A stretch of DNA of 64,000 nucleotides, taken from positions 27,011-91,010 of the IMG/VR virus record IMGVR_UViG_2563366895_000001. One strand, 5' to 3'. Shown one piece after another: positions 12,743-64,000 of this stretch. The DNA is from a virus (taxonomy: Duplodnaviria > Heunggongvirae > Uroviricota > Caudoviricetes). A model generated the notes under the pieces. The model ran no database searches. It was not told where the DNA came from and saw nothing but the letters and a program-made list of their open reading frames with translations. Positions within the stretch are counted from its first letter, which is position 1; every line of letters starts with the position of its first letter. Position numbers and translations under genes: made by a program.

Positions 12743-12753
12743 AAGGGATTTTT

Positions 12754-22520: not shown

Positions 22521-22582
22521 ATTTGGAGAGGAAAGGGTGCATTGAGGATACCTGACACACGAAGAGTGGCGGGGATCTCTCC

Positions 22583-23921: not shown

Positions 23922-23943
23922 GGATCTCTCCCCGCCAGGTCTC

Positions 23944-24157: not shown

Positions 24158-24280
24158 AGATATGGCCTCAGATTAATGTTAAGCGTCTTGCAGGACGCGT
24201 AATGTTATCTGGGGCTTTCTTCTATCTGCTTTTCGGGTAATGCCTGAAGCAGATAGCCTCAAGCACCCGCAACGATTGTA

Positions 24281-24526: not shown

Positions 24527-24576
24527 CTCCGACCTCAAACTGAAAACGCCAGGTGACTCCAGATTAGAGCAATTTA

Positions 24577-27985: not shown

Positions 27986-28002
27986 AAATTTATTAGAGCA
28001 GA
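27986..28002 (-). promoter_or_regulatory. C1-repressor operator-like site upstream of the c4-icd-ant block (P1 Op51 position)
   Basis: Plus strand AAATTTATTAGAGCAGA, 15/17 to the reverse-complemented consensus. Confidence 0.5.
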
Positions 28003-28283
28003 TTAGTGTCGTGCAATAGATATATTATTTGTGATGAAAAATAATGCAGAGGGATATTGTAACTTTAAGATGGATATCAATAGTCGATACATAAATTAAG
28101 TTAGCAATAAACTATTAACTTAAGAAATAATGCAGATGGTGAACTTGTCTCTGACTTTTCAGCTATACACAATAAGTTAGGGATAGCTTATAAAAAGTTG
28201 ATTAATTGATATAAGTCAATGGGAGTATTCTTGTTTACTTTCCGTTCTCGTGGTAACTTCTCGCCGGTTTTTGTTTTTCTGGG

Positions 28284-28805
28284 ATGATTCTTATGTCTAA
28301 AAAGTATACTTTATGCGCTCTTGTTGTATCTGCAATTCTTCTTTCTGGGTGTCAATCTAGCGGTGCTGATTATGCTGCCGATGTTTATGATACCGCTCAA
28401 TTGAATTCGAAGCAGGAAACAAAGACAGTCAATATTATCTCTGTGCTTCCAGCTAAAGTGAAAGTTGATAATAAAGCTAATAAAGAAGCGGCACAGACAT
28501 TTGGTGCGGTACTGGGAGCTGTTGCTGGGGGCGTTGCCGGTTATAATGTTAAAGGCACATCGACACTGGGTGCTGTAGCTGGCGGTACTGGTGGTGCGGC
28601 TCTTGGTGCAGCGGCTGGTTCTTTGGTTAGTGATAAAACAATTGTTGAAGGTGTTTCACTGACTTATAAAGAAGGAACTAAGGTGTTCACTTCAACTCAA
28701 GTTGGTAAAGCATGCCAGTTTACAACGGGGCTTGCTGTGCTTATTTCAACTAAAGATAATGAAACTCGAATTCAGCCAAATGCTACTTGTCCAGAAAAGA
28801 AATAA
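28284..28805 (+). CDS. Outer-membrane lipoprotein with glycine-zipper region (visibly AT-rich)
   Basis: Signal peptide with lipobox LLSGC; Gly-zipper GAVLGAVAGGVAGYNVKGTSTLGAVAGGTGGAALGAAAGS. Confidence 0.5.
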   Translation: MILMSKKYTLCALVVSAILLSGCQSSGADYAADVYDTAQLNSKQETKTVNIISVLPAKVKVDNKANKEAAQTFGAVLGAVAGGVAGYNVKGTSTLGAVAGGTGGAALGAAAGSLVSDKTIVEGVSLTYKEGTKVFTSTQVGKACQFTTGLAVLISTKDNETRIQPNATCPEKK

Positions 28806-28808
28806 TTT

Positions 28809-29348
28809 ATGAATAAAATTATTTTATTTCTAATCTTTTCTACGTTTAGTGTAGGCACTGCCTTGGCTAACTCGTTGCAAAGTCAAATTGCTGCTATTGC
28901 TCAAGCGGAAAATGAAGGGCGAGCTAAAGAGCAGCAAGCTGAGGATGCCAGAAAAGAACTTATTCGCCAACAAGCACAAGCTGAACGTATTAGAAGAGAA
29001 AAAGCAGCATCTGCCGCTGCTGCACGCGAAAAACAGCGTGTTGCTGCAGAAAATGAACGTAGAGCGAAACGAGAAGCCGAGCTAGCAAATGACAAGAAGC
29101 GAGATCAAGCTTATGAGGATGAGCTTCGCAAGCTGCAACTCGAAAGCATGAAACTCGAACTGCAAGCAAAAGCGGCTCGTGTCCAGCGAGAAAACGATTT
29201 TATAGAGCAGGAGTTGAAGGAGAGAGCAGCTAAGACAGATGTAATTCAGTCTGAGGCTGATGCAAATAGAAATATTTCTACAGGAAGTAAAGATTTACTG
29301 CAAAGCGAAGGAAAAGCTAGAGAGAAGAAAGCTAGCAGTTGGTGGTAG
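28809..29348 (+). CDS. Secreted coiled-coil protein
   Basis: N-terminal signal peptide (FSTFSVGTALA), then highly charged Ala/Glu/Arg/Lys-rich helix. Confidence 0.4.
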   Translation: MNKIILFLIFSTFSVGTALANSLQSQIAAIAQAENEGRAKEQQAEDARKELIRQQAQAERIRREKAASAAAAREKQRVAAENERRAKREAELANDKKRDQAYEDELRKLQLESMKLELQAKAARVQRENDFIEQELKERAAKTDVIQSEADANRNISTGSKDLLQSEGKAREKKASSWW

Positions 29349-29388
29349 TAATCGCTACGATTGCGAGCATACTGTCACAAATGACAAC

Positions 29389-42765: not shown

Positions 42766-43175
42766 TGAATACATCATATGCAGTTATTGAAAATGGGATG
42801 GTTGTGAATGTCATTGTCTGGGATGGCGAGGCTGAATTCACAGTGCCGGATAATCAGCAGCTCATTAATATTTCTGATATCAGTGAGCAGCCCGGAATCG
42901 GCTGGGTGTATTCAGACGGGGGATTTACTGCACCACCCACTCCGGAACGTTCTCATGATGAACTGGTAGCTGACGCTGAACAGAAAAAACAGTCGCTGAT
43001 TGATACCGCAATGGCTTCCATTAGTCTTATTCAACTGAAATTACAGGCCGGGCGGAATCTTACGCAGGCTGAAACCACCCGTCTTAACGCTGTGTTGGAT
43101 TATATCAATGCGGTGACCGCAACGGATACCAGCACTGCACCAGATGTCAATTTTCCAGCGTTCCCGGAGGCGTAG
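42765..43175 (+). CDS. U: Tail fibre assembly chaperone (Tfa, P1 U-like)
   Basis: ATG overlaps the fibre stop (TAATG) after GAGGAG; 136 aa; typical Tfa size and position. Confidence 0.55.
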   Translation: MNTSYAVIENGMVVNVIVWDGEAEFTVPDNQQLINISDISEQPGIGWVYSDGGFTAPPTPERSHDELVADAEQKKQSLIDTAMASISLIQLKLQAGRNLTQAETTRLNAVLDYINAVTATDTSTAPDVNFPAFPEA

Positions 43176-43214
43176 CCCATTTAAAAAAATATTTGGAGCG
43201 CTGGAAGTAACGAC

Positions 43215-43467
43215 TGGTTCCAGTGCATCCTGATAAGATGATTACTGTTCATGCTTCAAGAGCGAGCGCATACTGCATCCAAGCCAATCTAACTTTCATT
43301 CGACCAGAGTGTCACCTCTCAAAAGCATTTTTTAACTCTGGTCGTTCAGCCTTTTTGCCGCTCGCCTTGTCCTCAAAAATTAGCTCACATCCTGCGCTTT
43401 CAAGAGCATTTCGTTGTAAAGCAGTGTTTTGTTCATTTGTTGATACGCGTACATAGCCTATTAGCAT
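43215..43467 (-). pseudogene. cin: Truncated, decayed cin-like serine invertase gene
   Basis: Minus-strand hand translation from ATG 43467: MLIGYVRVSTNEQNTALQRNALESAGCELIFEDKASGKKAERPELKNAFER then stop; downstream in other frames GDTLVE and KLDWLGCSMRSLLKHEQ; matches the Cin/Hin/Gin N-terminus; the rest of the gene is absent. Confidence 0.6.
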
Positions 43468-43594
43468 ATTTTCTGCTCACTATCGTTATTTATAGCAAGC
43501 TGCGGATTTTAATTAACAAAAACCAGTGTGTGTGGAAATCACAAAGTACATACCGTTTCCCAATGAGATTTAATTCACTATTGAGGAAATAGTT

Positions 43595-43876
43595 ATGTTT
43601 GATTTCACAATAATGCTCCTCTCCATCCTTGGCGGGGTGCATTCGTTTCTGAATGGGGTTCGTGAAAAACGTTACGAAGCGTCATGCAGGCAATTGATGG
43701 CCGAGTGTATTGCTGCCGTACTTGCAGGCTTTATAGGCATGTATTTCGCGGAATATAAGGGTATGGATGAAAGTCTTCAGAATTGCGTGACTATTATTTG
43801 CAGCATCAATAACAGGCTCATTCTTGAAAAGTCACAAAGGATTATCGATTCGTACCTCAATAGAAATGCCTCTTAA
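43595..43876 (+). CDS. lydC: LydA-like holin paralogue (P1 lydC position)
   Basis: 93 aa, visibly homologous to the downstream LydA-like ORF (LLSILGGVHSFLNGVRE vs LLSVIGGIGTFLMDVRD). Confidence 0.45.
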   Translation: MFDFTIMLLSILGGVHSFLNGVREKRYEASCRQLMAECIAAVLAGFIGMYFAEYKGMDESLQNCVTIICSINNRLILEKSQRIIDSYLNRNAS

Positions 43877-43943
43877 GCAAGAAATGACCGGTTGAGAAGT
43901 TACTTTGCATACCATTACCTCCTGACAACGTAGGAGGGAACTT

Positions 43944-44273
43944 GTGCTTGACACACAGGAATTAGCTCCAGTTGCTATTGCGCTCCTGCTTTCAGTAATT
44001 GGTGGGATAGGCACGTTCCTGATGGATGTCCGAGACGGTCGCCAGTCTGGCAATTTGTTGGGATTGGTTACGGAGATCTTTGTTGCAGTGACAGCTGGCG
44101 CGGTGGCGTACCTATTGGGGCAACACGAGGGCTGGGAGTTATCAATTACGTACTTAATGGTAACGATAGCCAGCAATAACGGTCATGAGGTGATTTCAGG
44201 GATGAAACGAGTGAATATCGATAGCATTCTGAATGTTCTTACAAGTTTGGTGAAAAAGGGAGGCGGGAAATGA
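43944..44273 (+). CDS. lydA: Holin (P1 LydA-like)
   Basis: 109 aa, hydrophobic segments, first gene of the darA-type operon. Confidence 0.5.
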   Translation: MLDTQELAPVAIALLLSVIGGIGTFLMDVRDGRQSGNLLGLVTEIFVAVTAGAVAYLLGQHEGWELSITYLMVTIASNNGHEVISGMKRVNIDSILNVLTSLVKKGGGK

Positions 44274-44713
44274 TTGGCTGGGGTGTATGCGTTCTTGCGT
44301 TAGCCTTAGCCGATCGCTATTTGCTAAAACGCAAGGACATCACGCATTTAGAACTTGGTTATGTGGAAATTAAACCGGGTTTCATCCGGGTGCCGTTCAA
44401 GTACCGGTCTAAATTCCCGTTTTTGCGCGGCGCAACGGTCAGATATTGGATCCGCGATGTTCAGAAGCCGACGACTGTGATTGAAGGCGAACAACGTTGT
44501 CTGACGTCGGCTGAACAGGGCGAAAACAGTGAATGGTTGTACATACCCACTGAATATATGGGTAAAGGAGAGCGACTGTGGCATTTCAACGTCATGGTTA
44601 CGCATGGCGACTCGTTCATTAACCCGTTGTATCGGATTTTCCCTGTTACTCAGCAAATCCGCAGAAGTTACGTAATAAATCTCGCACAGGATGTGTCAGA
44701 TGACGAAAAATAA
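44270..44713 (+). CDS. lydB: Antiholin-like protein (P1 LydB position)
   Basis: 147 aa, ATGA-type overlap with lydA. Confidence 0.4.
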   Translation: MIGWGVCVLALALADRYLLKRKDITHLELGYVEIKPGFIRVPFKYRSKFPFLRGATVRYWIRDVQKPTTVIEGEQRCLTSAEQGENSEWLYIPTEYMGKGERLWHFNVMVTHGDSFINPLYRIFPVTQQIRRSYVINLAQDVSDDEK

Positions 44714-45302
44714 GTATGCAACGGTCGATTTTGACCTGGTTAATGAAAAGGGGCTGAAATCCCTTATCGCGGCGATCAATAAAACCGGTGTTACGGTAAT
44801 TGAGGTTGACTCCAGCAACCGCGCAACAACGAAAGATGGCGTTAAAGTTAAAACCGCAAAGCTGGTTCTTAACGACGGACAAATTCTTGCCATACAGGTA
44901 AACGATACTGGCGATATATCGTCTGTGAAACTGAATGGAAAAGCTATTCCTAACGCTCAGTCGCCGGATATCAAGACGCTTGGTACCGTCATGGGACAGG
45001 CGGCCCGCAAAAACTCCGCAAAATTCCAGAAATCACTGATCGCCAAAGCGAAGCGTGTTGCCAATCCGGTAGACAAGAAACCGGCAGTTAAATCCAACTT
45101 TCAGCGCCTGCAAGAAGCAAAACAGCGGAATGCTCAGGTGGTTGCCGCTTATAAGTCCGCGCAGAATTCGGTGTCTTTCAATCAACAGCAGATCACTGAT
45201 TTGCGGGCGAAGCTGGATAAGGAGACGGGCCGACTCAATAACGAAAAGGCACGGAATGTCGAACTCAAACGTCGTCTTAAGCAACTGAAAGCAGGAAATT
45301 AA
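44691..45302 (+). CDS. Hypothetical basic protein (P1 hdf position)
   Basis: 203 aa, Lys-rich, coiled-coil-like C-terminus. Confidence 0.35.
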   Translation: MCQMTKNKYATVDFDLVNEKGLKSLIAAINKTGVTVIEVDSSNRATTKDGVKVKTAKLVLNDGQILAIQVNDTGDISSVKLNGKAIPNAQSPDIKTLGTVMGQAARKNSAKFQKSLIAKAKRVANPVDKKPAVKSNFQRLQEAKQRNAQVVAAYKSAQNSVSFNQQQITDLRAKLDKETGRLNNEKARNVELKRRLKQLKAGN

Positions 45303-45303
45303 C

Positions 45304-47223
45304 ATGGAACAGTTCAATATCAATAAAGGGGTGACGATCAAGCCCGGGCTTGACGTGCTTCCCCCGCCAGTGACTGATGATGAATATCGCGCATTAATGT
45401 CCGGTGAGGACCGCTATCTGATGACGGAATCCAACACCCTGGAGGAAATCGAGGCTACGTTCTTCTATGACACGCCGATCCACTGGTGTGCTACGGATTT
45501 ACTGGAGGCGATTAGTTCTACTCGTTTGCAGTTACACCGGACCATGCAGGCATTTGTCCGGGCATTGAACCAGAAGCTGAATGGCACCGGAATCTCTGCG
45601 GGGAGTGATAAAACGGGGGATGTGGCCCAGAGCGGCGCGCGCGCGATCGGCGGTGCTGAAATTGGCCGGGCACGGAACGTTAACGGGCTGCCGGTCCTGC
45701 CAGCCATTATTCCGCTCAGTGATGGTCAGACTATCAGCATTCTGTTTCATAGCCCGACAGCGGAAAACCGGATCACCAATAGCGATACGCTGGTTGCTTT
45801 CCAGTTCTTACTGAATAAAAAAGACGTTACTCACACCGTTGCTCCGATGAGTGGACGTGATATGACGCTGGCGCAGGTCACCATGAAACTTGCCAACCTT
45901 GCAGAGAAAAACTCGGCAAAATTCCAGCGTGCGCAGAAGAAGAAAAAAGCCCTGGTTGATGAAATAACCCAACTACAGGCTGACAGTGACCAGAAAGAGG
46001 ATGCCATGAGCGACCTCGCGGATCAGGAGGCAGTGGTAGAAGGGCAGAAGGCAGATCTGGAGCAGAAAATTAACGCGGTCGCCTCGGAAGCGGATTCTCT
46101 TTATGAAGAGAATGAGCGTTTGCAGGCGGAGATTGATCAGCTCAATCGCACAGGTGGGCGCGATACCATTGCTCCAGTGGCAATAACTGGTGGGCACTCT
46201 CGCGCGCTGACGGATCGCCTTGCCAGTATCAAAAATCGTATGCATATGAACGGGGAAGTGACGCTCAGTAATGGTGCATCAATGAAGCAATTCATTGAGG
46301 ACGGTGAAGGGTATATCCAGTTAACCGATTCGGATGGCAGCGTGTACATGATCAAGGCTAAATCCATACAGGGTGTGGATATGGCAGATGCGATCGGCAA
46401 GCTGTTTAAAGCCTATAAAGCGGGTAATGTATCGGAATACCTGGTCCAACCAGAAGAACATAAACCGGAAAACGTCGAACCTGAACCAGCGGAGGATACC
46501 GGTAGCTCTTCGCCTGAACCAGAAGTCTCTATAGGTGCATATCGATATGCCCTGCAAATGCGTCCGGCGGCCCCTGGCGCAATACCTGAAGGTAACAAAG
46601 CAATTCTGCCGCGCCCTTATGAAGGTGACCCGTATTATGAATATGCACGCTACGGCATTGCTACTTACGATACCCCGCTTTCTGATCAGCAAATGAGTGA
46701 GTACGACCTGAAGTTATTGCCTCGCGAGGATTCTTTCGACTTCCTGGCGAAGACACTTACTAATGGTCCATTTGGCAAATATGCACAAAAAGCTCTGGAG
46801 CTGGCCACCAGCTCACCAGAAGAGTTCCGCGTAATGCTGAAAACTCAGTTTCAAAAAACTTTCCCCAATATTGCGTTTCCGGGGGGCGCTGGCACCGAGA
46901 AAATGGTGCAGAGCATGATCAATGCATTGCAGGCCGAAGTCGGTGAGATTACTCAACCAGAACCGGTCCCGGCACAGCCTGATGAAACGGTTAGCGAAGC
47001 AGATGCAGAGGCTAATAAAGCCATTGAATATCTCAATAGCGTGATGGATATGCAAAGCACTGACATGGCGGAGATCCGTAACGCCCGGGGTAATGTCCGG
47101 GAAGCGATTGCAGCCCTTCAGGCTGCCGGGCGTTTTGAGGAAAACGAAGAGCTGGTTAATGGCGCAGCTCGCCACCTGGCTGATCTGCTGGTAGCAATCC
47201 AGAAAGCGGGGGTAGCGGCATGA
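45304..47223 (+). CDS. darA: DarA-like antirestriction virion protein (639 aa)
   Basis: Position after lydA-lydB-hdf and length agree with P1 DarA; no direct motif evidence. Confidence 0.5.
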   Translation: MEQFNINKGVTIKPGLDVLPPPVTDDEYRALMSGEDRYLMTESNTLEEIEATFFYDTPIHWCATDLLEAISSTRLQLHRTMQAFVRALNQKLNGTGISAGSDKTGDVAQSGARAIGGAEIGRARNVNGLPVLPAIIPLSDGQTISILFHSPTAENRITNSDTLVAFQFLLNKKDVTHTVAPMSGRDMTLAQVTMKLANLAEKNSAKFQRAQKKKKALVDEITQLQADSDQKEDAMSDLADQEAVVEGQKADLEQKINAVASEADSLYEENERLQAEIDQLNRTGGRDTIAPVAITGGHSRALTDRLASIKNRMHMNGEVTLSNGASMKQFIEDGEGYIQLTDSDGSVYMIKAKSIQGVDMADAIGKLFKAYKAGNVSEYLVQPEEHKPENVEPEPAEDTGSSSPEPEVSIGAYRYALQMRPAAPGAIPEGNKAILPRPYEGDPYYEYARYGIATYDTPLSDQQMSEYDLKLLPREDSFDFLAKTLTNGPFGKYAQKALELATSSPEEFRVMLKTQFQKTFPNIAFPGGAGTEKMVQSMINALQAEVGEITQPEPVPAQPDETVSEADAEANKAIEYLNSVMDMQSTDMAEIRNARGNVREAIAALQAAGRFEENEELVNGAARHLADLLVAIQKAGVAA

Positions 47224-47585
47224 CACTATCAGCGATTGAGTTAATGGACCTCAGCGATAAGTTGGATGCTCTGATGTCCAAAGCGGCTACCGCGAGTGGC
47301 ATGGAGTTGCTGGATATCAGCGATGAAATTGACCAGATCATGCAACAGATGGGGTACGGCGCGTCTAGCGGCGGTAGTGGCGAAGAAAAACAACCTTCGG
47401 AACATGATGGTGTGCCAAAACTGGTTGCTGAATTCCTGGCTGATAAATTCGTCGATCAGAGCACTGATGCATTTATCGGTACGTTACAGGACTTGAGTCA
47501 ATATGTTGGCACATACATCGACCTGGACCAGGTTAAACAGCACACGGCGGCATGGATAGCCGCCAACATTAAAGAGGCAGCATAA
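47220..47585 (+). CDS. ddrA: DdrA-like small acidic protein
   Basis: 121 aa, ATGA-type overlap with darA. Confidence 0.4.
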   Translation: MTLSAIELMDLSDKLDALMSKAATASGMELLDISDEIDQIMQQMGYGASSGGSGEEKQPSEHDGVPKLVAEFLADKFVDQSTDAFIGTLQDLSQYVGTYIDLDQVKQHTAAWIAANIKEAA

Positions 47586-47597
47586 GGCGTAACAGGG

Positions 47598-50585
47598 ATG
47601 AGCTTAAGCGATCAGGTGGTAATGGCCACCAGCATAGAAACGCTGATCGAGCTGCTAAAAAACCTGCCCGATTTCGGGCGGGTTTCGTATGTGGTGACAG
47701 CGAAGGGAGACGAGGTAAAAACAGCGTTTGATATCGTCGATGCCTCAGCTCTTTTGGTATCCAATACTCTGGACGGGAAAATTAATCCGGACTATCCCCA
47801 GGAACTTCAGCCGCGCGACCGGACCCGCGCATCCAACCTTCTTCAGGTTAACCAGATATCCAAGGATTTGCGGCCTGCTCAGCTTACCGATTCCGGTTTA
47901 TCCAGCCATGGAGCGCCGATAATTGGTGAGGACAATGCCGTTGAGTCAGGTAATGGACGGACCATGGGGATCATCAAAGCCTATCAGGACGGCAATGCGG
48001 ATCGGTATCGTGAGTACCTGATTGATCATGCGACCGAATTCGGCATACGACCTGAAAAGGTTGAATCAATGGCGGCTCCGGTACTGGTGCGCCGCCGGTT
48101 AACTAAGGTTGACCGCGTTCAGTTTGCCAAGGACTCAAATATTTCTGATCTTCAGGAAATGGCAGCCAGTGAAAAGGCTTTTGTTGATGCCGACAGCATA
48201 ACTCCGGCGATGATGGCGCTGTTTAACCCATCAGAAAGCGGAGATCTGCTTAGCCGCAGTAATGACGCGTTTATCCGCGGATTCATGACGCAAGTTGGTG
48301 CCACACAGGCTGCTGGCCTTGTAACGGAAGATGGGCGACCAACACGGCAACTTGTAGACCGTATACAAAACGCGATCTTTGCCAAGGCATATAAGGATGC
48401 GCGCCTGGTAAGGATGGTTGCAGAAGAACCTGATCCGGATATGCGTAATGTTCTGACGGCGCTTAATGCGGCAGCCAATGATTTTGTCCAGATGCAGGCT
48501 TTATCAGGAGAAGCGCACAAGCAGGCTGTGACAACTATCGTTGATGGCATTGAAACAGCGGATAGCCTCGATAAAAAGGCGCTGGCGGCATTGAAAGATG
48601 CGGTAGACCTGGTAAGGCAATCGAAGGAGTCAGGCCAACATATTACCGATGTTATTGCTCAGGGGGATATGTTCAGCGAAACAGCCCCGGAAGTGAAAGC
48701 TCTCGCGTTGTTCATCGTCGCGAATAACCGTAGCGCGAAGCGTATGGCCACCGCCTTTAAGTTGATGGCGCAACGTATCAATGATGAGTTACAGCACCAG
48801 GGCCAGGCGCTCGGGGATATGTTTGGCGGCGGCGATGTGTCGTTACAGGATATCCTTCGCCAGGTGTCTCAGGAACTGGAAAACGAAGGCATGCAAGGGA
48901 TATCCGGCGGTCTTTTCGAGTCCGTTTCCGGCGGTAGTTACAACGGTGTTGCTCCGTATACCAGTTTGCTATTACATCGGGCATCCGGCATCAAAGACAT
49001 TATTCATCTGATCAGGCTGCTTTCCCGCACAGATCCCCAGGATGAACAGCTTGTACAAGTGCTTGCGCATTTTGTTCGAATGCCTGTTGCCGACGTGAAA
49101 AAATGGTGCCGATTATTCGGTATCAGCAATTCGTTACTTCGCGGCTTGTTAAATCACGCATCCTCCCTTGGGCGCGATGGCTTTGATGAGATAGCGCAGG
49201 CGATAAAAAACGGAGATATGCCACCAGCTATTGACTGGTTTTCCATTCGCCCAACCAGGGTGAAAGCATTCCTTAGCGCGGCGCATACGGCATCACCATT
49301 GGCAGAAATGGTTCAGAGGTTGTCGCTCATATTCACAGATCATACCGCGTTGGGAGATCTGACTCTTGACGGGATGAAAGAAGCCTCCAGTCAGTGGGCC
49401 GATCAACAAAATGAGGTTAACTCTGACTTCTTGCCAGCATTCAGGAAGGCCGTTAGTAAAGCGGATGATGCCCGTGGAATTCTGAAGGCATTTAAGGCAT
49501 TGCAAAGTCGGGTTAATAAACATGTCGGTGATATCGATGGGGTAACGGCGGAAGGCAGGGATATCCTTAAAGAGCACGGCATAACGCCAGAGTTTATTGA
49601 TGAGATCAGGACTGATATGCAGCGTGAGGTCGTATCGTCCCTGCAAATCGTAGCCAGAGCGTTGGCGGATGCTAATCCGAAGAGTGCGGCCATTGTTAAC
49701 CGGGTTATTGGTGATATTGAAGCATCGGAGGGCATGGGGGCGCTGAAACTCTTCCTTTCGCGAGCGTTTAATCCTAACGGCAATATTCTCCCTGGCATTA
49801 TTGGTGAGGCTAAAAAGTATGTCAGTGAAGAAGAACTTGAGCAGCTTGACCAACTACTTAAGCGATTCTCATATAACCCGCAGACACGCTGGCAAATGAA
49901 TCAGCGAAGTATGGATTCGGTCCACGAGAAAGTGTTATCTGTCATGAACAGTGCGATCGTCAACTCATCCGTATCTGAAGAAAAAGCTCTTGAGTGGGCC
50001 GACTCTTTTATCACGGAAGAAGTGGAAGAAGCCCGCGCTGGACAGAATGGTGGGATAAACTTGCGCAAGGAACTTGCTGATATTTATCGCCTGACCGGCG
50101 GGAAAATATCGACCTTATCAAAGGTGGTTCACCACCAGGGAAGGGCATATGCAAATCTAAATGGTGTTGTTGCTGTCAATTTGAACGGTGAAAATGCGAG
50201 CGCACTGTGGCACGAGCTGGGTCATCATCTTGAGTACAGTAACCCTGGTTTGTTAGAGAAAGCCCGGTCATTCCTGAAGGCCAATGTTGAAGGGGATAAG
50301 CCATCTTTCGTCAATATCGGTGGGCGTGGCAAGCCCGAATGGTGCTTCAGATCTCGATTGAGTAATATTTATATGGCGAAGGTATACCCGCCAGCCTCAG
50401 TAAGTAACACCGGGAAAATTCGGCAGAAATCACCGACTATTTCCAAAACGTCAGCAACGGAAGTATTCTCTATGGCTCTTCAGTTGTATCATGACAAAGA
50501 GGCCGCTGCCGCATCACTGATGAATGGTGACGGATTGCTGGAACTGTTATTAGGTGTGGCAAAGGAGCTAAATAATGCAGATTAA
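47598..50585 (+). CDS. ddrB: DdrB-like large protein (995 aa)
   Basis: Position and size as in the P1 darA operon. Confidence 0.45.
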   Translation: MSLSDQVVMATSIETLIELLKNLPDFGRVSYVVTAKGDEVKTAFDIVDASALLVSNTLDGKINPDYPQELQPRDRTRASNLLQVNQISKDLRPAQLTDSGLSSHGAPIIGEDNAVESGNGRTMGIIKAYQDGNADRYREYLIDHATEFGIRPEKVESMAAPVLVRRRLTKVDRVQFAKDSNISDLQEMAASEKAFVDADSITPAMMALFNPSESGDLLSRSNDAFIRGFMTQVGATQAAGLVTEDGRPTRQLVDRIQNAIFAKAYKDARLVRMVAEEPDPDMRNVLTALNAAANDFVQMQALSGEAHKQAVTTIVDGIETADSLDKKALAALKDAVDLVRQSKESGQHITDVIAQGDMFSETAPEVKALALFIVANNRSAKRMATAFKLMAQRINDELQHQGQALGDMFGGGDVSLQDILRQVSQELENEGMQGISGGLFESVSGGSYNGVAPYTSLLLHRASGIKDIIHLIRLLSRTDPQDEQLVQVLAHFVRMPVADVKKWCRLFGISNSLLRGLLNHASSLGRDGFDEIAQAIKNGDMPPAIDWFSIRPTRVKAFLSAAHTASPLAEMVQRLSLIFTDHTALGDLTLDGMKEASSQWADQQNEVNSDFLPAFRKAVSKADDARGILKAFKALQSRVNKHVGDIDGVTAEGRDILKEHGITPEFIDEIRTDMQREVVSSLQIVARALADANPKSAAIVNRVIGDIEASEGMGALKLFLSRAFNPNGNILPGIIGEAKKYVSEEELEQLDQLLKRFSYNPQTRWQMNQRSMDSVHEKVLSVMNSAIVNSSVSEEKALEWADSFITEEVEEARAGQNGGINLRKELADIYRLTGGKISTLSKVVHHQGRAYANLNGVVAVNLNGENASALWHELGHHLEYSNPGLLEKARSFLKANVEGDKPSFVNIGGRGKPEWCFRSRLSNIYMAKVYPPASVSNTGKIRQKSPTISKTSATEVFSMALQLYHDKEAAAASLMNGDGLLELLLGVAKELNNAD

Positions 50586-50880
50586 AATCGCAGCGCCATT
50601 AGGCGGAGATGCCATTATCGAATTTGATGATAATGAAGAAGTTTCCGGGCGTTTAAGCATTATCTCCGGTGACATTACCGAGGACATGATCGCTGAAGCC
50701 ATAGCAGGGGCAAATCCCAATAGCTATATGGGATTCGTTAACACCCTTGATGCTCCCGCAAGTGATGTTCTCCGAACGCTGCATCTTTACGCTGGCTGGT
50801 TTGTTGATTGGCCAGCAGTAGATGGTGGCGATGATGACGACGATGATTTTGGTGATCATGTAGACCAGATCGTATATTAA
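50575..50880 (+). CDS. Hypothetical acidic protein ending in a poly-Asp stretch
   Basis: 101-aa ORF overlapping the ddrB stop; GGDDDDDDFGD near C-terminus. Confidence 0.35.
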   Translation: MQIKIAAPLGGDAIIEFDDNEEVSGRLSIISGDITEDMIAEAIAGANPNSYMGFVNTLDAPASDVLRTLHLYAGWFVDWPAVDGGDDDDDDFGDHVDQIVY

Positions 50881-50992
50881 CTCCCTGATTGTGCACAAAT
50901 AATCTGTTCTGATATGTTAATTGTGTACTTAAAGTAAACGCGTAGTGGCTTGCTTTAGGTTATGGAAGCAAGCCATTTCCTATTAAAGTAGA

Positions 50993-51598
50993 TCAAAAAA
51001 CTTTAATTTTGGCGTTTCGCTCACCACATATTGAGCACTTTAGCCGATTTTTTAAGTCTTCCAGAGTCAATCCTGAAGCTACATATTGTTTAATGTCTCT
51101 TTGAGAGAGTATCACTGGTTCACGGAACCTATAACCGCCGCAGAGATGTATTATCATTATCTCAGAATCATTTTCTAACCAGTCATTAAGAGTGTTGTGT
51201 GGTTTAGAAAGTCGCTCAATATCCAAACGCCATTGTTGGATTTCATTACTGTCCCAGTCGAGATTTAGTTTAGCACGTTGGGCAACGAACCGATGTTTTC
51301 CTCTGTTAATACTAGGTTCGTAGTCTTTTCGTTGATCGGTAGTAAGGTCCTCTTCGTATAGAAATGAATCATCGTTTTTATGAGTGGGTTCAAAAATTAC
51401 TTCAATAAAACTTGGCTCATACGCGTTAAAGCTTTTTTTTCTTATGAATATCCCTTGTGTACCACTCCCGTTTAAATCAGCACAAAAATTAACATCTATT
51501 CCTCGACGAAGTGCGAAAAAATAGCTATGTTCCCTCATGGCCACAGCTAATTTGGCTATATCTATAAGGTTGTGTATTTTATCAGAATATGTATTCAT
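50993..51598 (-). CDS. Hypothetical protein in a visibly AT-rich island
   Basis: Start taken at ATG 51598 (MNTYSDKIHNL...), the listed ORF starting at a TTG; C-terminal CSICGE; no recognised domain. Confidence 0.45.
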   Translation of the reverse strand: MNTYSDKIHNLIDIAKLAVAMREHSYFFALRRGIDVNFCADLNGSGTQGIFIRKKSFNAYEPSFIEVIFEPTHKNDDSFLYEEDLTTDQRKDYEPSINRGKHRFVAQRAKLNLDWDSNEIQQWRLDIERLSKPHNTLNDWLENDSEIMIIHLCGGYRFREPVILSQRDIKQYVASGLTLEDLKNRLKCSICGERNAKIKVF

Positions 51599-51777
51599 GA
51601 GGCTTCCAAGCAAATATCATGACAAGCATAAAGTGTTAAAGTAATGTTACGCATCTTAACAAAGTGACTCTTGATTAATTTTAATTCGCCCTATCTTGCT
51701 TGTCTAACCATCATTGCATATACAGAGGGCAAAGAATTACACTTCATGTAATTTATTTCCCTTTAATTTCGTATTAT

Positions 51778-54319: not shown

Positions 54320-57050
<2,731 letters not shown>

Positions 57051-57116
57051 TTAATTAGAATAATTCACATCGTGTTTGAACGGAATTTAACACTAGTCAC
57101 TTGTTAAGGATTACCA

Positions 57117-60100
57117 ATGAACAAGCTATCTATGGGGGTGTTTCGCTGTTCAAGTGTCAGCGAAATATTGAAATACATTAGGGCAATAACATCTCACCGA
57201 GCGCCGATTAAATACGGCGTGGAAAAGGTGGAAGGCAAAAGCTATGACCGACTGCGCCGGGAGGCGAATCAGAAGGCGATAGATTTGCTTAATTCGCTGG
57301 TGGACGGCGCGACACTGACAGATGAACAGCGCCAGATCCTGGCTGGGTACACCGGTGAAGGCGGCATTGGCGGGTCCATCTCCGAATATTACACACCAAA
57401 GCCGATCGCTGAAGGTGTCTGGGAGATCATGAAGCTCTACGGCGCGGACGTAGGTAACACTCTGGAACCATCGGCGGGCACCGGCGTTTTTAATGAGACA
57501 AAACCGGTTGGTACGGTGATGACTGCGACTGAGATCAGCAGTGTTTCCGGTCGTATAAACCAGCTGTTACACCCGGAAGACAGCGTACAGATTTCCCCGT
57601 TCGAACAGCTGGCTGTAAGCACGCCTAACGATTCATTCGACCATGTTGTGGGTAACGTTCCGTTCGGTGGTCGTGATAACACACGCAACATCGATAAGCC
57701 TTACGCAGAAGAAACGGACATGGGTTCTTACTTCATGCTCCGCATGCTGGACAAGATAAAGCCAGGCGGATTCATGTGCGTGATTGTGCCGCCGTCCATT
57801 GTTTCAGGTTCAAACATGAAGCGGTTACGCCTGCGCCTATCACGGAAAGCTGAATTTCTTGGTGCTCACCGCTTGCCTACCGGTACTTTTGACGCAAACG
57901 GGACCAGTACAGTTGTTGATGTGGTGCTGATGCGCAAACATCCGGCAGAGATGGCTGAGAAAATCCCCCTGGTGGATGAAAGCACTCTTGAATCGGCAAA
58001 TGTGCTTTGGCCAACGTTTATTTCTGGCAAGTGGTTTGAAAAGGATGGCCGCCGGTTTGTTCATGGAACCCAGGAAAAGGGCTTCCAGGGGCGTATTGAG
58101 GTTCGTGCCGACGGTCAGATTGATAACCAGGTTCTTAAAGCGAAGCTGATTCATCGTTTCGAAAGCCGTATCGACTGGTCTTTGCTCGATATGGCTGAAC
58201 CGTCACCGACCGCAGATGTTGTTGATGAAGGGGAAATGCGCCTGATTAATGGCGTATGGCAAAAATATGCTGGTGGTCGCTGGATTGAAGCTGATGCCGG
58301 GAAGGAGCTGAAGATTGAGGTTGCCAGTTATGGCGCGGATAGCTGGGAGGCTCTTCAGCGTAACCTGACTACAACAGAAGGCCGTCTCGGCATGACATTT
58401 ACCCAGATGGCAAATGTCCGCGATAAGTACACCACATCAATCAGCGACGATATGGTGCAGCTGGTGGACTGGATTAACAGCCAGCCTGAAAAATACCGTG
58501 AACGCTTGTATCGCGGGGCGATGATTGGCCGGATGTTAATTGAATATCAGGACATGAAGGCCGCCGGGCATAGTGCTGAACAAATCGAACAGCAGCGCCT
58601 TTCTCTGGTATCCCGTTTGCAGGCAGAGATTGACCGTTTTGGTAACCCCGGTCGCGGTCCGATAGCGAAATTATCGGGGAGCGGTGCTCGCGCCTGGTTT
58701 GCTTTCCGTGGTGCAATTAAGCTGGATGGCACTATTTCTGACGAGCTGACAGGAAAACTGGTTACGCATGATTCCAGCGCCAGTTATGACTCCACCAGCT
58801 ATCAGGACACCCTGCGTTATCTCTACAGTGATCTCACTCGCGATCCAATCCAGCTCGATGATTTCCGCCTTGCGTTTACCGGCGAACTGCCAGCCAGTGA
58901 TGACGAGTTGCTTAATTTATTGGCCAGCACCCCTGGCATTGCGGTTTCACCGTATGGCGGGATTGTTCCGTTCGCCCGCGCCACCAGCGGCAACATTAAC
59001 GAGATAGTGGCTCCAAAACAGGAATTCCTCGCCACGCTCCCCGACGGTCCAGTAAAGAACAACGTCCTTAATCAGCTGGCAGCGATCGAAGAGAAGCGCA
59101 TCAAGACGCCAGCAGAGAATATCCGCTTTAAGCTCAATAGCCGTTGGTTCGACCGTTCCGTCATTCTGGAGTTTTTGCAGGAAAACGGCTATCCGGATCT
59201 GCGCTATGTGCAGTCAGTGCAGTTGGAAGGCGACGAAATGGTTTCTGACACCTATCACGGTGGTGATGGTCTGTTCGTCGGGCACCGATACGGTGTCGTC
59301 CAGCGCAAGGATAAAGAAACAGGCGAGATCCGCTACGAGTGGGACCGTAAATCAGGTGAAAACGCGACCGGGTTCCCGGCACAGCTGGAAAAGTATCTCA
59401 ATGGTGCGCGTATCGGTGGCAAAGATAGCGCGACGGCGAACGGCTACCGCGAGCAGATGGCACTGCTTGAGGACCAGTTCAATAAGTGGATCAAGACGCA
59501 CGATCGCTACGATGAGCTGGTTGCCAAATACAACGATGTGTTCAATAGCAATATCCCGTATGAACACTCTGGCGATCCGCTTGGGTTGAAGGGATTAAGC
59601 GGTAAGCGACAGCCATTTGATTACCAGAATAGCGAGGTGCGCCGACTGTCCGAAGATGGGCGCGGCATCCTGGGCTTCGGTACCGGGCTGGGTAAAACCA
59701 CGACCGCGCTGGCGCTTGAGGCGTTCAACTATGAGAACGGTCGTTCCACCCGTACTGCGTATGTAGTGCCTAAATCAGTGCTGGAAAACTGGTATTACGA
59801 AGCAAAAGAGTTCCTGAGTGAAGAGGCATTCAGTAACTACCTGTTCGTCGGTCTTGATGTGCTGATGGATGGCGATCAGATTCGCCAGGTGCCGGTGCTC
59901 AATGAGAACGGTAAACCTGTTCTTGGTACTGATGGCACTTCAGTTATGCGCGATGCTCTTAAGCTGGCAGATGAAGCCACTATCACGGCGCGGATGAACG
60001 CGATCCCGCACTCAAATTACCGTGCAGTCGTGTTTACCAAAGAACAATACGCCCGCATTCCGCTACGTGATGACACCGTAGATGAGCATGCACAGGATAT

Positions 60101-63100
60101 GCTTTATGACTTCGTTGCCGCCGGGCGCGTAGCCAGCGCAATGGACTCCGACTCCCACCGCAAAGAGGCCGCGCGTCGCCGGGTATTGTCGGAGTATTCA
60201 GATACCGGCACCGAAAAAGCAGAGAAGTATCCGTACTTTGAGGATATGGGCTTCGATAGTGTGATCGCTGACGAAGGTCACAACTACCGCAATAGCTATA
60301 AAAATGGTCGCGAAGCGTCACAACTGGCCTATCTGCCCACCAGCGCGGTGGCGCAATCGGCGCGGGATATGGCAATTAAAAACGCGTACCTGATGAAAAA
60401 GAATGGTGGGCGCGGACCGGTTCTCCTGACTGCAACGCCAGTCGTTAACACCCCGATCGATGCATACAACATGCTTTCTCATGTGCTGCCGAAGGAATAC
60501 TGGCAGAAGATGGGGATCTACGGTCCTGATGACTTCGTTAAATTCTTCGGCAAGACCAGGCTGGAAACGGTACAGAAAATTAGCGGTGAAGTTGAAGAAA
60601 AAATGGCGCTGGTGGGCTTTGAAAACCTTGATGCGCTGCGCGGTATATTCCATCGCTGGGTAACGCTTAAAACGGCGGAAGACGTTAAGGATACCGTGGA
60701 GATCCCGGAGCTGGACGAACACCAGCAGGATGCACCACTTACTGAAGAACAACTGGCGGCGTATGAAGAATTGCGTCAGCAGGCGGAAGCGGCGGCCAAA
60801 GCCAACAATGGCGTAACGACCTCGGTCAATGAAGACGGCGTGATTGAGCACGAGAAAGCCCGTCCGATCTTCTCAATAATCAGGGATATGGACCGCGTAT
60901 GTACTGACATGGACCTGTACTATCGCCGGATCACCTATCGTTTCCTGCCGGAGTACGCCGATGCGGTGCAGCAGCTGGCGGACAGTTTGCCTAAACAAGC
61001 CACCAGCGAAGACGACGACAGTGATGATTCGATCACGCAGCAATCGCAATACTCCCTGATAGATAAGGGCGAGTTTATTCAGTTGCAGGTACCGGAAGCA
61101 TTTGAGCAGGAAGTGAATAAGCGCCTGGCCAAGTTTGGCATTGACGAACAGACCGTAACTCACCCCGTTACGCCCAAATACGCGAAGCTGATTGCCACGC
61201 TGAAGGAGTTTTTCCCAGAAGGTAAGCAAATCATCTTCACCGATGAAAAAACGCAGCACCAGAAGCTCAAGCGCATTATCTGCAATGCTCTTAACCTTGA
61301 ACCTTCAAAGGTGGGGATCCTGAATGCTCAGACGGTTGCCGAGGCAGGTAAAACCGGTAAGAAACTGAAAGCGGTTAAACCGCCGAAAGAGCTACCGGAT
61401 GAACCAACAGATGCACAGATAGCGAAATACAACGAGCAAATGGCTCTGTATGACGCCTATATCGCGCAGCAAAATGAAATGTCGTTGGGCGGTCTGGAAA
61501 AGATTGCAGCCGACTTCCAGGAGGGCCGGACTCCGATCATCATCTGCAACAAAAAGGCAGAGGTGGGTATCAACCTGCATCGAGGAACGACGGATATCCA
61601 CCACCTGACGTTGCCGTGGACACCAGCCAGTATCGCACAGCGTAACGGTCGCGGTGCCCGAGTTGGTTCCAACCGTGCAAGCGTTCGCGTTCACTACTAC
61701 TGCGGCAAGGGGTCTTTCGATGAATACCGACTGAAGACGCTGAAGCGTAAAGCAGGCTGGATCTCCGATATCCTCCGTTCAGATAAGTCAGAAATGGAGA
61801 ACGCCGACGCCAATGACATGATCGAAATGCAGATGTATACCGCGAAGGATGACGGCGAACGTCTGGCAATGATGCAGGTTCAAATGGATAAGGCGAAAGC
61901 TGCGAAACGCGCTCGCCAGAAAGAACAGGCTACTATCGACCTTCAGAACTACATCAAGGCGCAGCACGCAGCTGGCGAGGATGTGGAGGTACTTACCGCT
62001 GAATTAGAGCGAAGCAAAGCGGAACTTGAAAAGACCACCGCCGAGGTAGCTAAATTCAAACAGGCGGCAATGGCCAAAGCAGCTGATAACGCAGACTGGA
62101 AGGCCCGCTGGGGTAGCGTCCATCACACAGACCGTACGTTGTTAGCACAGTATCGCGCGTCGTTGAAAAGCGCCATTCAGCGCAAGGCTAATATCTCTCA
62201 GGCCATCTCCCGCTATGAGAAATTATTGAACCGTACTCAGAAGGCCGCGACGGATATCAAACGCCTGCGCCCGCTGGTGGAGGATGCAATAAATAAAGGC
62301 ATTCTGGATGTTGATCCTGATCTGGTTAACCATGCGAATGAGTTCCTTGTTATCGGCGATCGCTCATGGCGTGTAGGCCAATACTACGATTGTGCCGGTG
62401 ATATCTTTCGCATTAAGTCGCTGGACTTCGACAGCCAGCGCGCAGACGTGGAGATCATCTTTACCTTAAGAGGCACCAAATCGGGTAACTGGGATGTGAA
62501 GACGCTGGATAAACAGGTGGATGTAACTCCCGATGAAGATGCTGTTATGCAGAAAATCAGTGGTGGCGTCTCCATCGCCGGGATTAACGACATCATTTCC
62601 TGTGACGATTTCTACCGTTTCCAGCAGCGCGGCATGATCAAAATCACTGACTCGTACGGCGTTCAGACTACAGAGTCAGGCTATAGCATTGATTTTGTTG
62701 GTACCTATACGGACCCACTGAAGCATGCGATTTACCCGGATCGCCGTGACGGCGCGCTGAAGTCGTCAATTGCAAAATGGGTGCTTGGTATGATGTCGGA
62801 AGGGAATAACCGCCAGATCCGTTCGGCAGAAACATTCCTGGTTGAATTGTTTGGCTCCAATTATGGCGATGTAATCGCGTCATACGGAGATACGCTATCC
62901 CCTGAAGCAATTCAGGAGAAAATAGCGGATGCGATCGCCAGAATGCCGGAAAAAACAAGCCAGGGGGCTACTCGTAACGGGGATTCTGAACTTGAAGTCA
63001 CCAATGCCATTTTCGGTACCAATGAGTTCCGGGCGTCAGATTATGAGATCACCACAGCACAGTTTGGCACCATTGGCATTTACAGCAATAAAGACGAGAT

Positions 63101-63884
63101 CAAGCAGGCAATGGACGCAGCAAGTGCGCGCATTGCAGCAGAACGGGAAGCCAATCTGAATCATGCAGTCGCCGCGCTGACTCAATCGTGGGTAACAGCA
63201 ATCAGGGAGGCCGCCACCACAGGGAAAATCACACCTGCAATTGCGGATGTCGTAAACGACGGCTCTAAATTTATGGATGCCTATCAAATGGATGCGGTGA
63301 AGTTGCCATCAGCCTATGGTCAACTCAGCTATCGCATGACCTACAACCTGGTATCAATGTTTTCTGACCTTGCCATTCTTGGGCTGGTGGACCTTAACGA
63401 GGTTACGCCGGAATTGCTCAGCATGCGCAAGAATCATGTGGAGATATTGCAGAGAATTAACACGGCACTTGCCGGTCGCACCGATGAAGAGAAACAGGCA
63501 GACGCTGATCGGATAAACCTGGCCCTTGGCAACATCACGGAGGAAGAAATTGCCGCCAGAAACGAGAAACAAGAAGAGTTATCATCAATACAGGGTGATG
63601 CCACCAGCATAGCTCAGTCTCTTGGTCTGAATTATCGCGTATCCACCGCCGACCTGAAGATGATGTACGCACCAAAATTCGCCGCTGGCGAGGTATTTGG
63701 GCTTCAGGAAGCCTCCGGCATGAAAGGCATTCTTTTCCGTGCGAAAGACGCAATCAAGGCGAAATTCGGCGCTCGCTGGCTGCCAGCGAAGGCGAAGAAC
63801 AGCGATTTCCCGGGTAACTGGTGGATTATCGAGACAAAACACAACGTGGCGGACGTTCTGGCCGTCATCCAACAATACGCATAA
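57117..63884 (+). CDS. darB: DarB-like giant methyltransferase-helicase (2255 aa)
   Basis: N-terminal N6-adenine MTase-like motifs (LEPSAGTGVF; VVGNVPFGG); helicase motifs GFGTGLGKTTTALA, VIADEGHNYRN and QRNGRGARVG; length equals my recollection of P1 DarB. Confidence 0.8.
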   Translation: MNKLSMGVFRCSSVSEILKYIRAITSHRAPIKYGVEKVEGKSYDRLRREANQKAIDLLNSLVDGATLTDEQRQILAGYTGEGGIGGSISEYYTPKPIAEGVWEIMKLYGADVGNTLEPSAGTGVFNETKPVGTVMTATEISSVSGRINQLLHPEDSVQISPFEQLAVSTPNDSFDHVVGNVPFGGRDNTRNIDKPYAEETDMGSYFMLRMLDKIKPGGFMCVIVPPSIVSGSNMKRLRLRLSRKAEFLGAHRLPTGTFDANGTSTVVDVVLMRKHPAEMAEKIPLVDESTLESANVLWPTFISGKWFEKDGRRFVHGTQEKGFQGRIEVRADGQIDNQVLKAKLIHRFESRIDWSLLDMAEPSPTADVVDEGEMRLINGVWQKYAGGRWIEADAGKELKIEVASYGADSWEALQRNLTTTEGRLGMTFTQMANVRDKYTTSISDDMVQLVDWINSQPEKYRERLYRGAMIGRMLIEYQDMKAAGHSAEQIEQQRLSLVSRLQAEIDRFGNPGRGPIAKLSGSGARAWFAFRGAIKLDGTISDELTGKLVTHDSSASYDSTSYQDTLRYLYSDLTRDPIQLDDFRLAFTGELPASDDELLNLLASTPGIAVSPYGGIVPFARATSGNINEIVAPKQEFLATLPDGPVKNNVLNQLAAIEEKRIKTPAENIRFKLNSRWFDRSVILEFLQENGYPDLRYVQSVQLEGDEMVSDTYHGGDGLFVGHRYGVVQRKDKETGEIRYEWDRKSGENATGFPAQLEKYLNGARIGGKDSATANGYREQMALLEDQFNKWIKTHDRYDELVAKYNDVFNSNIPYEHSGDPLGLKGLSGKRQPFDYQNSEVRRLSEDGRGILGFGTGLGKTTTALALEAFNYENGRSTRTAYVVPKSVLENWYYEAKEFLSEEAFSNYLFVGLDVLMDGDQIRQVPVLNENGKPVLGTDGTSVMRDALKLADEATITARMNAIPHSNYRAVVFTKEQYARIPLRDDTVDEHAQDMLYDFVAAGRVASAMDSDSHRKEAARRRVLSEYSDTGTEKAEKYPYFEDMGFDSVIADEGHNYRNSYKNGREASQLAYLPTSAVAQSARDMAIKNAYLMKKNGGRGPVLLTATPVVNTPIDAYNMLSHVLPKEYWQKMGIYGPDDFVKFFGKTRLETVQKISGEVEEKMALVGFENLDALRGIFHRWVTLKTAEDVKDTVEIPELDEHQQDAPLTEEQLAAYEELRQQAEAAAKANNGVTTSVNEDGVIEHEKARPIFSIIRDMDRVCTDMDLYYRRITYRFLPEYADAVQQLADSLPKQATSEDDDSDDSITQQSQYSLIDKGEFIQLQVPEAFEQEVNKRLAKFGIDEQTVTHPVTPKYAKLIATLKEFFPEGKQIIFTDEKTQHQKLKRIICNALNLEPSKVGILNAQTVAEAGKTGKKLKAVKPPKELPDEPTDAQIAKYNEQMALYDAYIAQQNEMSLGGLEKIAADFQEGRTPIIICNKKAEVGINLHRGTTDIHHLTLPWTPASIAQRNGRGARVGSNRASVRVHYYCGKGSFDEYRLKTLKRKAGWISDILRSDKSEMENADANDMIEMQMYTAKDDGERLAMMQVQMDKAKAAKRARQKEQATIDLQNYIKAQHAAGEDVEVLTAELERSKAELEKTTAEVAKFKQAAMAKAADNADWKARWGSVHHTDRTLLAQYRASLKSAIQRKANISQAISRYEKLLNRTQKAATDIKRLRPLVEDAINKGILDVDPDLVNHANEFLVIGDRSWRVGQYYDCAGDIFRIKSLDFDSQRADVEIIFTLRGTKSGNWDVKTLDKQVDVTPDEDAVMQKISGGVSIAGINDIISCDDFYRFQQRGMIKITDSYGVQTTESGYSIDFVGTYTDPLKHAIYPDRRDGALKSSIAKWVLGMMSEGNNRQIRSAETFLVELFGSNYGDVIASYGDTLSPEAIQEKIADAIARMPEKTSQGATRNGDSELEVTNAIFGTNEFRASDYEITTAQFGTIGIYSNKDEIKQAMDAASARIAAEREANLNHAVAALTQSWVTAIREAATTGKITPAIADVVNDGSKFMDAYQMDAVKLPSAYGQLSYRMTYNLVSMFSDLAILGLVDLNEVTPELLSMRKNHVEILQRINTALAGRTDEEKQADADRINLALGNITEEEIAARNEKQEELSSIQGDATSIAQSLGLNYRVSTADLKMMYAPKFAAGEVFGLQEASGMKGILFRAKDAIKAKFGARWLPAKAKNSDFPGNWWIIETKHNVADVLAVIQQYA

Positions 63885-64000
63885 CAGGAGCGCCCGGTTC
63901 GCCGGGCGTCGCATAATATGGCCACACTATCTGATACAATAAAACCGAATAAAACATATCTTGAGGCGGTACTCCGTACAGCGTTGTTAGGAAAGACAGA

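Follow-up and report, generated by a model that had tools for sequence, protein, structure and literature searches.

The Dar antirestriction genes of a P1-like phage-plasmid and the giant putative methyltransferase-helicase DarB

To which system does a 2255-residue protein with methyltransferase and helicase motifs belong when it is encoded by a tailed phage, and what could it do to the DNA with which it travels? This question is raised by the open reading frame (ORF) at 57117..63884 of a 64,000-nucleotide (nt) stretch of the IMG/VR virus record IMGVR_UViG_2563366895_000001 (Caudoviricetes; positions 27,011 to 91,010 of that record), which was analysed at its full length and is called the window in the following. 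The original prediction had placed a DarB-like methyltransferase-helicase of this size here, alongside a complete darA-type operon, and the ORF is present exactly at these positions. We find that the window most probably carries the Dar antirestriction system of a P1-like phage-plasmid (Punavirus), gene-for-gene orthologous to that of phage P1; the probability of this explanation as a whole is put at about 0.93, and nothing was found that argues against the identification as the P1 Dar system. Packaging, ejection and target spectrum have been shown for P1 and may be transferred to the present element by near-identity.

The large ORF comprises the following parts, given as positions in the window, strand and predicted content:

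57117..63884, plus strand: darB, ATG start, 2255 codons (ORF list; full-length match to PHROG 1685)
57117..57206, plus strand: DarB residues 1-30, capsid-targeting sequence, identical to P1
57294..58001, plus strand: DarB residues ~60-295, LPD36-like helical region (GEGGIGGS), TP motif (YYTPKP) and putative core of a gamma-class N6-adenine methyltransferase (MTase) (Pfam, motifs, alignment of distant homologues, weak PDB matches, architecture in PMC5512222)
59613..61796, plus strand: DarB residues ~833-1560, predicted SWI2/SNF2-type ATPase of two RecA-like lobes with helical inserts (Pfam, motifs)
61797..63881, plus strand: DarB residues 1561-2255, C-terminal region with no recognisable domain (no Pfam match at E<=0.01)

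At the DNA level, darB matches the gene of phage P1 (NC_005856 10469..17236; YP_006479.1) along 100% of its length with 98.1% identity, and those of P7, SJ46, RCS47 and other P1-like phages with 97.7-98.4% identity. The two proteins, both of 2255 residues, share 98.5% amino acid (aa) identity with 33 substitutions and no insertion or deletion; residues 1-87 are the same and residue 88 is the first substitution. In P1, the N-terminal 30 residues suffice for steering a reporter protein into the capsid (PMC9024508). Since the frame is free of stops over 6.8 kb and 98% identical to a characterised gene, a chance origin of the ORF is excluded. By sequence comparison, the gene is identified as the P1 darB orthologue and not just as "DarB-like".

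The second arm of the system is located at 43944..50880. The complete darA-type operon that had been predicted there behind the holin genes is found as seven consecutive plus-strand ORFs, all of them intact, in the order lydA-lydB-hdf-darA-ddrA-ddrB-hxr, with products that are 96.7-100% identical to those of P1:

43944..44273, plus strand: lydA, holin, first gene of the operon, 109 aa, 100% identical to P1 LydA; Pfam Phage_holin_3_3
44270..44713, plus strand: lydB, holin antagonist, 147 aa, 98.0% identical to P1 LydB; Pfam LydB (E 1e-102)
44691..45302, plus strand: hdf, DarA-N homologue and head-size determinant, 203 aa, 98.0% identical to P1 Hdf; Pfam DarA_N, PHROG "Hdf-like antirestriction"
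45304..47223, plus strand: darA, internal head protein, 639 aa, differing from P1 DarA by 21 substitutions without indels (96.7% identity); Pfam DarA_N and DarA_C
47220..47585, plus strand: ddrA, 121 aa, 96.7% identical to P1 DdrA; PHROG "DdrA-like anti-restriction protein"
47598..50585, plus strand: ddrB, 995 aa, 98.2% identical to P1 DdrB, 18 substitutions; Pfam ddrB-ParB (E 3e-39)
50575..50880, plus strand: hxr, at the end of the operon, 101 aa (P1: 102 aa), 97.1% identical to P1 Hxr

Gene order and protein lengths are those of P1, Hxr alone being 1 aa shorter, and the window block 43500..51000 is 97.8% identical to P1 24125..31627. In DdrB, a ParB-like domain is predicted at the N-terminus and a zincin metallopeptidase motif (HELGH at aa 872) towards the C-terminus, a reading of its domains that follows PMC5512222. 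For Hxr there is no Pfam match; the P1 annotation has it as a possible Xre-like repressor, and no Dar role is known for it. Hdf is required for packaging the Dar proteins in P1 (PMC12810830, PMC9024508). By these comparisons, hdf-darA-ddrA-ddrB are recognised as intact within one late operon behind lydA/lydB. Both P1-type antirestriction arms are present here as predicted, with darB and the darA operon intact, but the prediction had omitted two members, hdf and ulx, the latter present in the window with 27 codons.

The flanking control regions and the beginning of ulx correspond to P1 as well:

43897..43915, plus strand: late promoter LPdar (-22 and -10 elements) before lydA, position transferred from the P1 annotation
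57031..57061, plus strand: predicted sigma-70 promoter PdarB, position transferred from the P1 annotation
63918..64000, plus strand: 5' end of ulx, 27 codons, whose product is the DarB partner; first 27 residues identical to P1 Ulx, role from PMC9024508

In the 68 nt 5' of lydA a single base differs from P1, and it is outside both LPdar elements. The 75 nt directly 5' of darB (57042..57116), which contain LPpro and the -10 hexamer of PdarB, are 100% identical to P1; the -35 hexamer (57031..57036) is outside this comparison and within a block that aligns to P1 at 98.1%. PdarB overlaps the start of the portal gene prt (ORF 55332..57041, minus strand), and as in P1 prt/pro is divergent from darB, which is placed between the portal gene and ulx. 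The darB-ulx spacer of 33 nt is identical to that of P1. Moreover, the window is collinear with P1 from 77427 to 10353 in reverse orientation, with 96-99% identity outside of mosaic segments (local blastn), and none of the mosaic replacements concerns a Dar gene. On account of this collinearity the element is assigned to the P1 group (Punavirus) of phage-plasmids.

In P1, Dar consists of the six virion proteins Hdf, DarA, DdrA, DdrB, DarB and Ulx (PMC9024508, PMC12810830), which are packaged stepwise, Hdf and DarA first, DarB and Ulx last (PMC12810830, PMC9024508), with DarB being recruited via its N-terminal 30 residues in ~40 copies per head (PMC9024508). On leaving the head together with the DNA the proteins act in cis, with no protection beyond the co-packaged DNA (PMC12707154 and PMC5512222, each with reference to Iida et al. 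1987). The role as virion-injected anti-defence proteins that had been claimed for P1 is thus well backed (PMC12810830, PMC9024508, PMC12707154). DarA is required against EcoA and StySA, and sensitivity to EcoB and EcoK is affected by DarB, Ulx and DdrB; DarA and Hdf also determine the head size (PMC12810830). As StySA has turned out to be a bacteriophage exclusion (BREX) system, on which DarAB acts as well, the reach of Dar exceeds type I enzymes (PMC9009780).

For the present element the same course of events would be expected. The darA operon and darB would be expressed late in infection, Hdf and DarA would enter the procapsid before DdrA and DdrB, and DarB and Ulx would come last. On infection, the Dar proteins would be ejected together with the DNA and act in cis only, the DarA arm shielding it from EcoA-type type I enzymes and StySA/BREX and the DarB/Ulx arm from the EcoK/EcoB family. 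Recognition sites of EcoKI (5), EcoBI (8) and EcoAI (2) are present in the window, and therefore the element would be a target that benefits from protection. The claim that these genes define which restriction systems are evaded holds for the published P1 genetics (EcoA/StySA-BREX, EcoB/EcoK), and only at that level.

What DarB could do on the entering DNA has to be judged from its domains. All Pfam matches reported for it exceed the curated gathering cut-offs: N6_Mtase at aa 145-291 with 33.9 bits (cut-off 20.4), SNF2-rel_dom with 42.6 bits (24.9), Helicase_C with 27.7 bits (23.5), and in addition the Eco57I-type MTase model and ResIII. The profile search thus recovered the methyltransferase and helicase domains that had been predicted. 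The MTase motif I, LEPSAGTGVF at aa 116-125, fits the S-adenosylmethionine-binding pattern xEPxxGxGxF, and motif IV is NVPF at aa 180-183 (57654..57665). In the helicase part, motif I (GTGLGKTT, 856-863), motif II (DEGH, 1052-1055), motif III (TATP, 1105) and motif VI (QRNGRGARVG, 1508) were identified, which together with the SNF2 profile matches fit a superfamily 2 (SF2)/SNF2 ATPase. A regular-expression search detected neither the canonical [DNS]PP[YFW] nor a DEAH box anywhere in DarB. In a sequence search against the PDB the N-terminal module matches, weakly, only M subunits of type I enzymes, among them HsdM of EcoKI (E 2e-4 to 7e-4); besides these the search returned only a weak SNF2 helicase match, and a solved structure of DarB was not among the results. 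Pfam at E<=1 gave nothing beyond noise for the inter-domain segments and the C-terminal 715 aa. "Methyltransferase-helicase" agrees with the domains and motifs, but as a name it states a prediction.

The comparison with P1 points to constraint on both modules. The ratio of non-synonymous to synonymous substitution rates (dN/dS) is 0.043 for aa 1-300, 0.031 for aa 831-1560, 0.18 for the linker, 0.25 for the C-terminal 695 aa and 0.107 for the whole of DarB, values that are indicative only because they are based on the small total of 36 non-synonymous and 95 synonymous differences. Within the C-terminal 695 aa fall 20 of the 33 substitutions (binomial p=4e-4), and the C-terminus is also the least conserved part of the homologue from Cronobacter phage JK004 (65-68% identity). 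The homologue of Xanthomonas phage Rb1 is 15-46% identical to DarB along most of the length and less so at the extreme C-terminus. The catalytic motifs, as well as the TP motif, are unchanged across P1, JK004 and Rb1. These figures are indicative of strong purifying selection on both enzyme modules and of a C-terminal third that evolves fastest, and the invariant motifs argue for both enzymatic modules being in use. DarB would thus ride the entering DNA as a SWI2/SNF2 double-strand translocase that is coupled to an EcoKI/TaqI-like adenine-MTase module, and may keep type I enzymes from recognising or translocating the DNA productively. It could do so by methylating adenines independently of sequence, or else by occluding HsdM/HsdR complexes or displacing them. 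Between protective methylation and methylation-independent occlusion or displacement our belief is split roughly evenly.

It is quite possible, though we hold this tentatively, that DarB does not methylate at all. As a DNA-bound SWI2/SNF2 translocase it would occlude sites or strip or block translocating type I and BREX complexes, and the role of the MTase-like module would be confined to binding DNA or adenine or to an HsdM/PglX-like interaction. This agrees with the strictly cis action and with protection that spans unrelated specificities including BREX (PMC12707154, PMC9009780), with the SNF2 module being the most constrained part and its motifs invariant, and with PDB sequence relatives of the N-terminal module that are solely type I M subunits. 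The non-canonical motif IV points in the same direction. At the aligned site NVPF is found in the window, P1, JK004 and Rb1, and NPPF or NPPY is kept by Thermus Lalka27a, Klebsiella LASTA, BcepIL02 and Atu_ph08, while the family description gives NPP(Y/F) (PMC5512222). However, catalysis would be the simplest explanation for the strong purifying selection that acts on motif I and on two residues of motif IV, Asn and Phe, and displacement itself is hypothetical.

Nearly the same degree of belief, and still a tentative one, is given to the possibility that the SNF2 motor moves DarB along the DNA while the MTase methylates adenines so broadly that EcoK and EcoB sites are covered ahead of any attack by the host enzymes. 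NVPF retains the Asn, the third-position Pro and the aromatic residue of motif IV, and the adenine methyltransferases Erm and KsgA are active with N(I/L)PY, which is likewise N-hydrophobic-P-aromatic; methylation by DarB despite NVPF is therefore plausible. The EcoKI/TaqI-like gamma-class fold passes the Pfam thresholds, the P1/JK004/Rb1 clade shows no variation in motif I, in the TP motif or in the Asn and Phe of motif IV, and the dN/dS of the MTase module is low. Such a model has already been proposed by Iyer et al., who describe DarB as the archetype of an LPD36/adenine-MTase/SWI2/SNF2 "dyad" whose motor would take the methylase with it on the injected DNA (PMC5512222). Against it, reports of methylation by DarB are lacking (PMC9009780, PMC11109961), a single enzyme would have to cover unrelated recognition sequences, and motif IV departs from NPP(Y/F) precisely in the P1 clade.

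A further step would be to assume that DarB of the P1 clade is no methyltransferase but an SNF2 motor acting in cis, by which type I and BREX complexes are stripped off or jammed, with the C-terminal third as arms-race interface to HsdM/HsdR or PglX and with allele differences that tune which host systems are evaded. The first part is suggested by the drift of motif IV from NPPF/Y to NVPF and the second by the dN/dS of 0.25 and the accumulation of changes against P1 in this third. We regard this combination as rather unlikely.

Some observations weigh against the reading of the window as a P1 Dar system that works as outlined above. There are 33 substitutions in DarB and 21 in DarA relative to P1. 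The intactness of the set can be followed up to the window end at 64000, which cuts ulx after 83 nt, ~119 codons being beyond it. With NVPF as motif IV, catalytic competence of the MTase appears not guaranteed. Neither MTase nor ATPase activity has so far been demonstrated for DarB, whose mechanism the literature calls undefined (PMC11109961, PMC9009780). Furthermore, Skutel et al. found that plasmid-borne darB relieves EcoKI restriction via Chi and EcoKI sites and not via the protein, and that the same relief is obtained with the first 350 codons of darB even with stop codons introduced (PMC11109961), a DNA effect that confounds expression-based tests.

This last result leads to the view that the Chi-rich darB acts as DNA, triggering restriction alleviation that depends on RecBCD/RecA and ClpXP, with the protein being dispensable. 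The darB gene contains 11 Chi sites (GCTGGTGG; 6 on the plus and 5 on the minus strand) out of 30 in the 64-kb window, against an expectation from base composition of ~0.2 for the length of darB and ~1 per strand for the whole window, and the count equals that of P1 darB and the figure in PMC11109961. However, alleviation works in trans on the whole cell via ClpXP. Dar, by contrast, shields in a co-infection just the DNA that it was packaged with (PMC12707154), and DarB is abundant in the virion, at ~40 copies per head, and has a targeting signal of its own (PMC9024508). The darB ORF is moreover under purifying selection. In work by Piya from 2017, deletion of ulx reportedly gives a darB-like phenotype with the darB DNA retained. 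An explanation by the DNA only was rejected as very improbable; since Dar acts in cis, the Chi effect is an experimental confounder and not an explanation. A fused methyltransferase-helicase restriction enzyme of the type ISP, BREX or DISARM (defence island system associated with restriction-modification) kind, in which MTase and SF2 helicase fusions exist and to which the ResIII and Eco57I-type matches would fit, was rejected with near certainty, because Pfam scans found no nuclease, PglZ or PLD domain across the 2255 aa and because DarB, at 98.5% identity, is the counterpart of a virion antirestriction protein that has already been characterised and has the P1-like position between portal gene and ulx.

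The same darB is present in 807 plasmid records of PLSDB (674 at >=95% identity) and in 777 of 5426 complete Escherichia coli genomes, where 826 of 847 locations are plasmid-borne. In 441 of these 777 genomes a copy covers >=80% of the gene; the copy in the window is full-length. The closest match (99.0%) comes from E. coli plasmids of pig faeces, and there is no exact match in the collections, so that by this comparison the allele is to be placed well inside the known variant cloud. The Dar system described here has been known before and is nothing unusual in a P1-like phage-plasmid. Its main use is for annotation, namely of a P1-like phage-plasmid with a virion-delivered antirestriction gene set, whose particles and transduced DNA should overcome type I barriers of the EcoK, EcoB and EcoA types as well as BREX barriers of the StySA type. 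As such elements occur in ~14% of complete E. coli genomes, this matters for gene flow. The window teaches no new biology, and the mechanism of DarB is no easier to test with its allele than with P1 itself; a non-methylating DarB with a tuning C-terminus is a question for P1 biology generally.

Outside the Dar genes, the window has several mosaic segments. The dmt homologue (Dam-like plus C5 methyltransferase; 6643..9684, minus strand) is longer than that of P1, with 1013 aa instead of 754 aa. It contains a clean insertion of 1020 nt (8431..9450, at P1 66643/66645), in which Hint (aa 77-126) and LAGLIDADG (aa 298-361) domains are encoded and which is probably an intein with homing endonuclease inside Dmt; this insertion occurs at 99.5-100% identity in RCS47, vB_EcoM-Ro157c2YLVW and one "P1" record (OP279344), where it is annotated plainly as dmt. 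A further stretch of 184 nt (7756..7939) takes the place of 430 nt of P1 dmt. The parA/parB genes (ORFs 14719..15930 and 15927..16892, plus strand; segment 14613..16988) are ~65% identical to those of P1 in surroundings without P1 match, and due to this divergence par and the incompatibility type would differ from P1. An insertion sequence with a DDE transposase (DDE_Tnp_1; ORF 22632..23750, plus strand) is contained in a segment without P1 match (22521..24562), the flanks of which align to P1 53412 and 51585 in the area of rlfA, rlfB and pmgF. The P1 sim (superimmunity) region, at 28001..29376 of the window, is replaced by two plus-strand ORFs (28284..28805 and 28809..29348), one with a weak sub-threshold TraT-like match and one with DUF5384. 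The tail-fibre gene S (38374..42765, plus strand; the observation covers 39966..43266 in addition) has a product of 1463 aa, that of P1 having 987 aa; the distal part of S is without P1 match and has Gp34_trimer and Gly_rich_2 domains, and this divergence suggests a different host range and different content of the invertible C-segment. At 3563..5941, ~2.4 kb without P1 match replace ~4.5 kb of P1 (69373..73866; ban, dbn, tci region), and the three ORFs scanned there gave no Pfam match.

Compared with known systems, the closest is P1 itself, which shares the length of DarB, the capsid-targeting sequence, the MTase and helicase motifs, prt as neighbour, the 75 nt upstream and the darB-ulx spacer. 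It differs by an Hxr that is 1 aa longer, by the substitutions in DarB (33), DarA (21) and DdrB (18), and by an IS1 between isaA and isaB, located between the two Dar loci, which is absent here, the flanks being joined directly at ~51723..51731. P7, SJ46, RCS47, vB_EcoM-Ro157c2YLVW and hundreds of plasmids of E. coli and Salmonella carry darB with 97.7-99.0% nt identity along the full gene. In Rb1 (region 3953..13016) and JK004 (region 752..7990) a gene of the size of ulx, with 141 and 146 codons, respectively, is located directly 3' of the darB homologue, which in Rb1 is preceded by genes for an "internal head protein" and a metallopeptidase. This suggests that a Dar-like module may be conserved beyond enterobacteria. 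The annotated darB start of JK004 is 30 codons too late compared with the P1-aligned start.

More distant are the DarB-like methylase-SWI2/SNF2 "polyvalent proteins" of the Bcep22-like phage BcepIL02 (gp70), Klebsiella LASTA (gp01), Agrobacterium Atu_ph08 and Thermus Lalka27a, which share the LPD36-type N-terminal helix with the TP motif, the EcoKI/TaqI-like MTase and the SNF2 ATPase (PMC5512222) and, like DarB, are encoded among late or virion genes. However, they are only 26-33% identical to DarB across the MTase core, are much larger (~4400-4900 aa by annotated coordinates, against 2255 aa) and have NPPF/NPPY as motif IV instead of the NVPF of the P1 clade. T7 Ocr, T4 IPI* and ArdA serve the same end, which is to overcome type I restriction (and BREX) when DNA enters the cell, and IPI* is, as DarB, packaged into the virion with a capsid-targeting sequence (PMC9024508, PMC11109961). 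Whereas Ocr, IPI* and ArdA are small inhibitors that bind the enzymes and act in trans, Dar is a six-protein set delivered by the capsid, with a putative enzyme of 250 kDa, which acts only in cis on the co-packaged DNA (PMC12707154).

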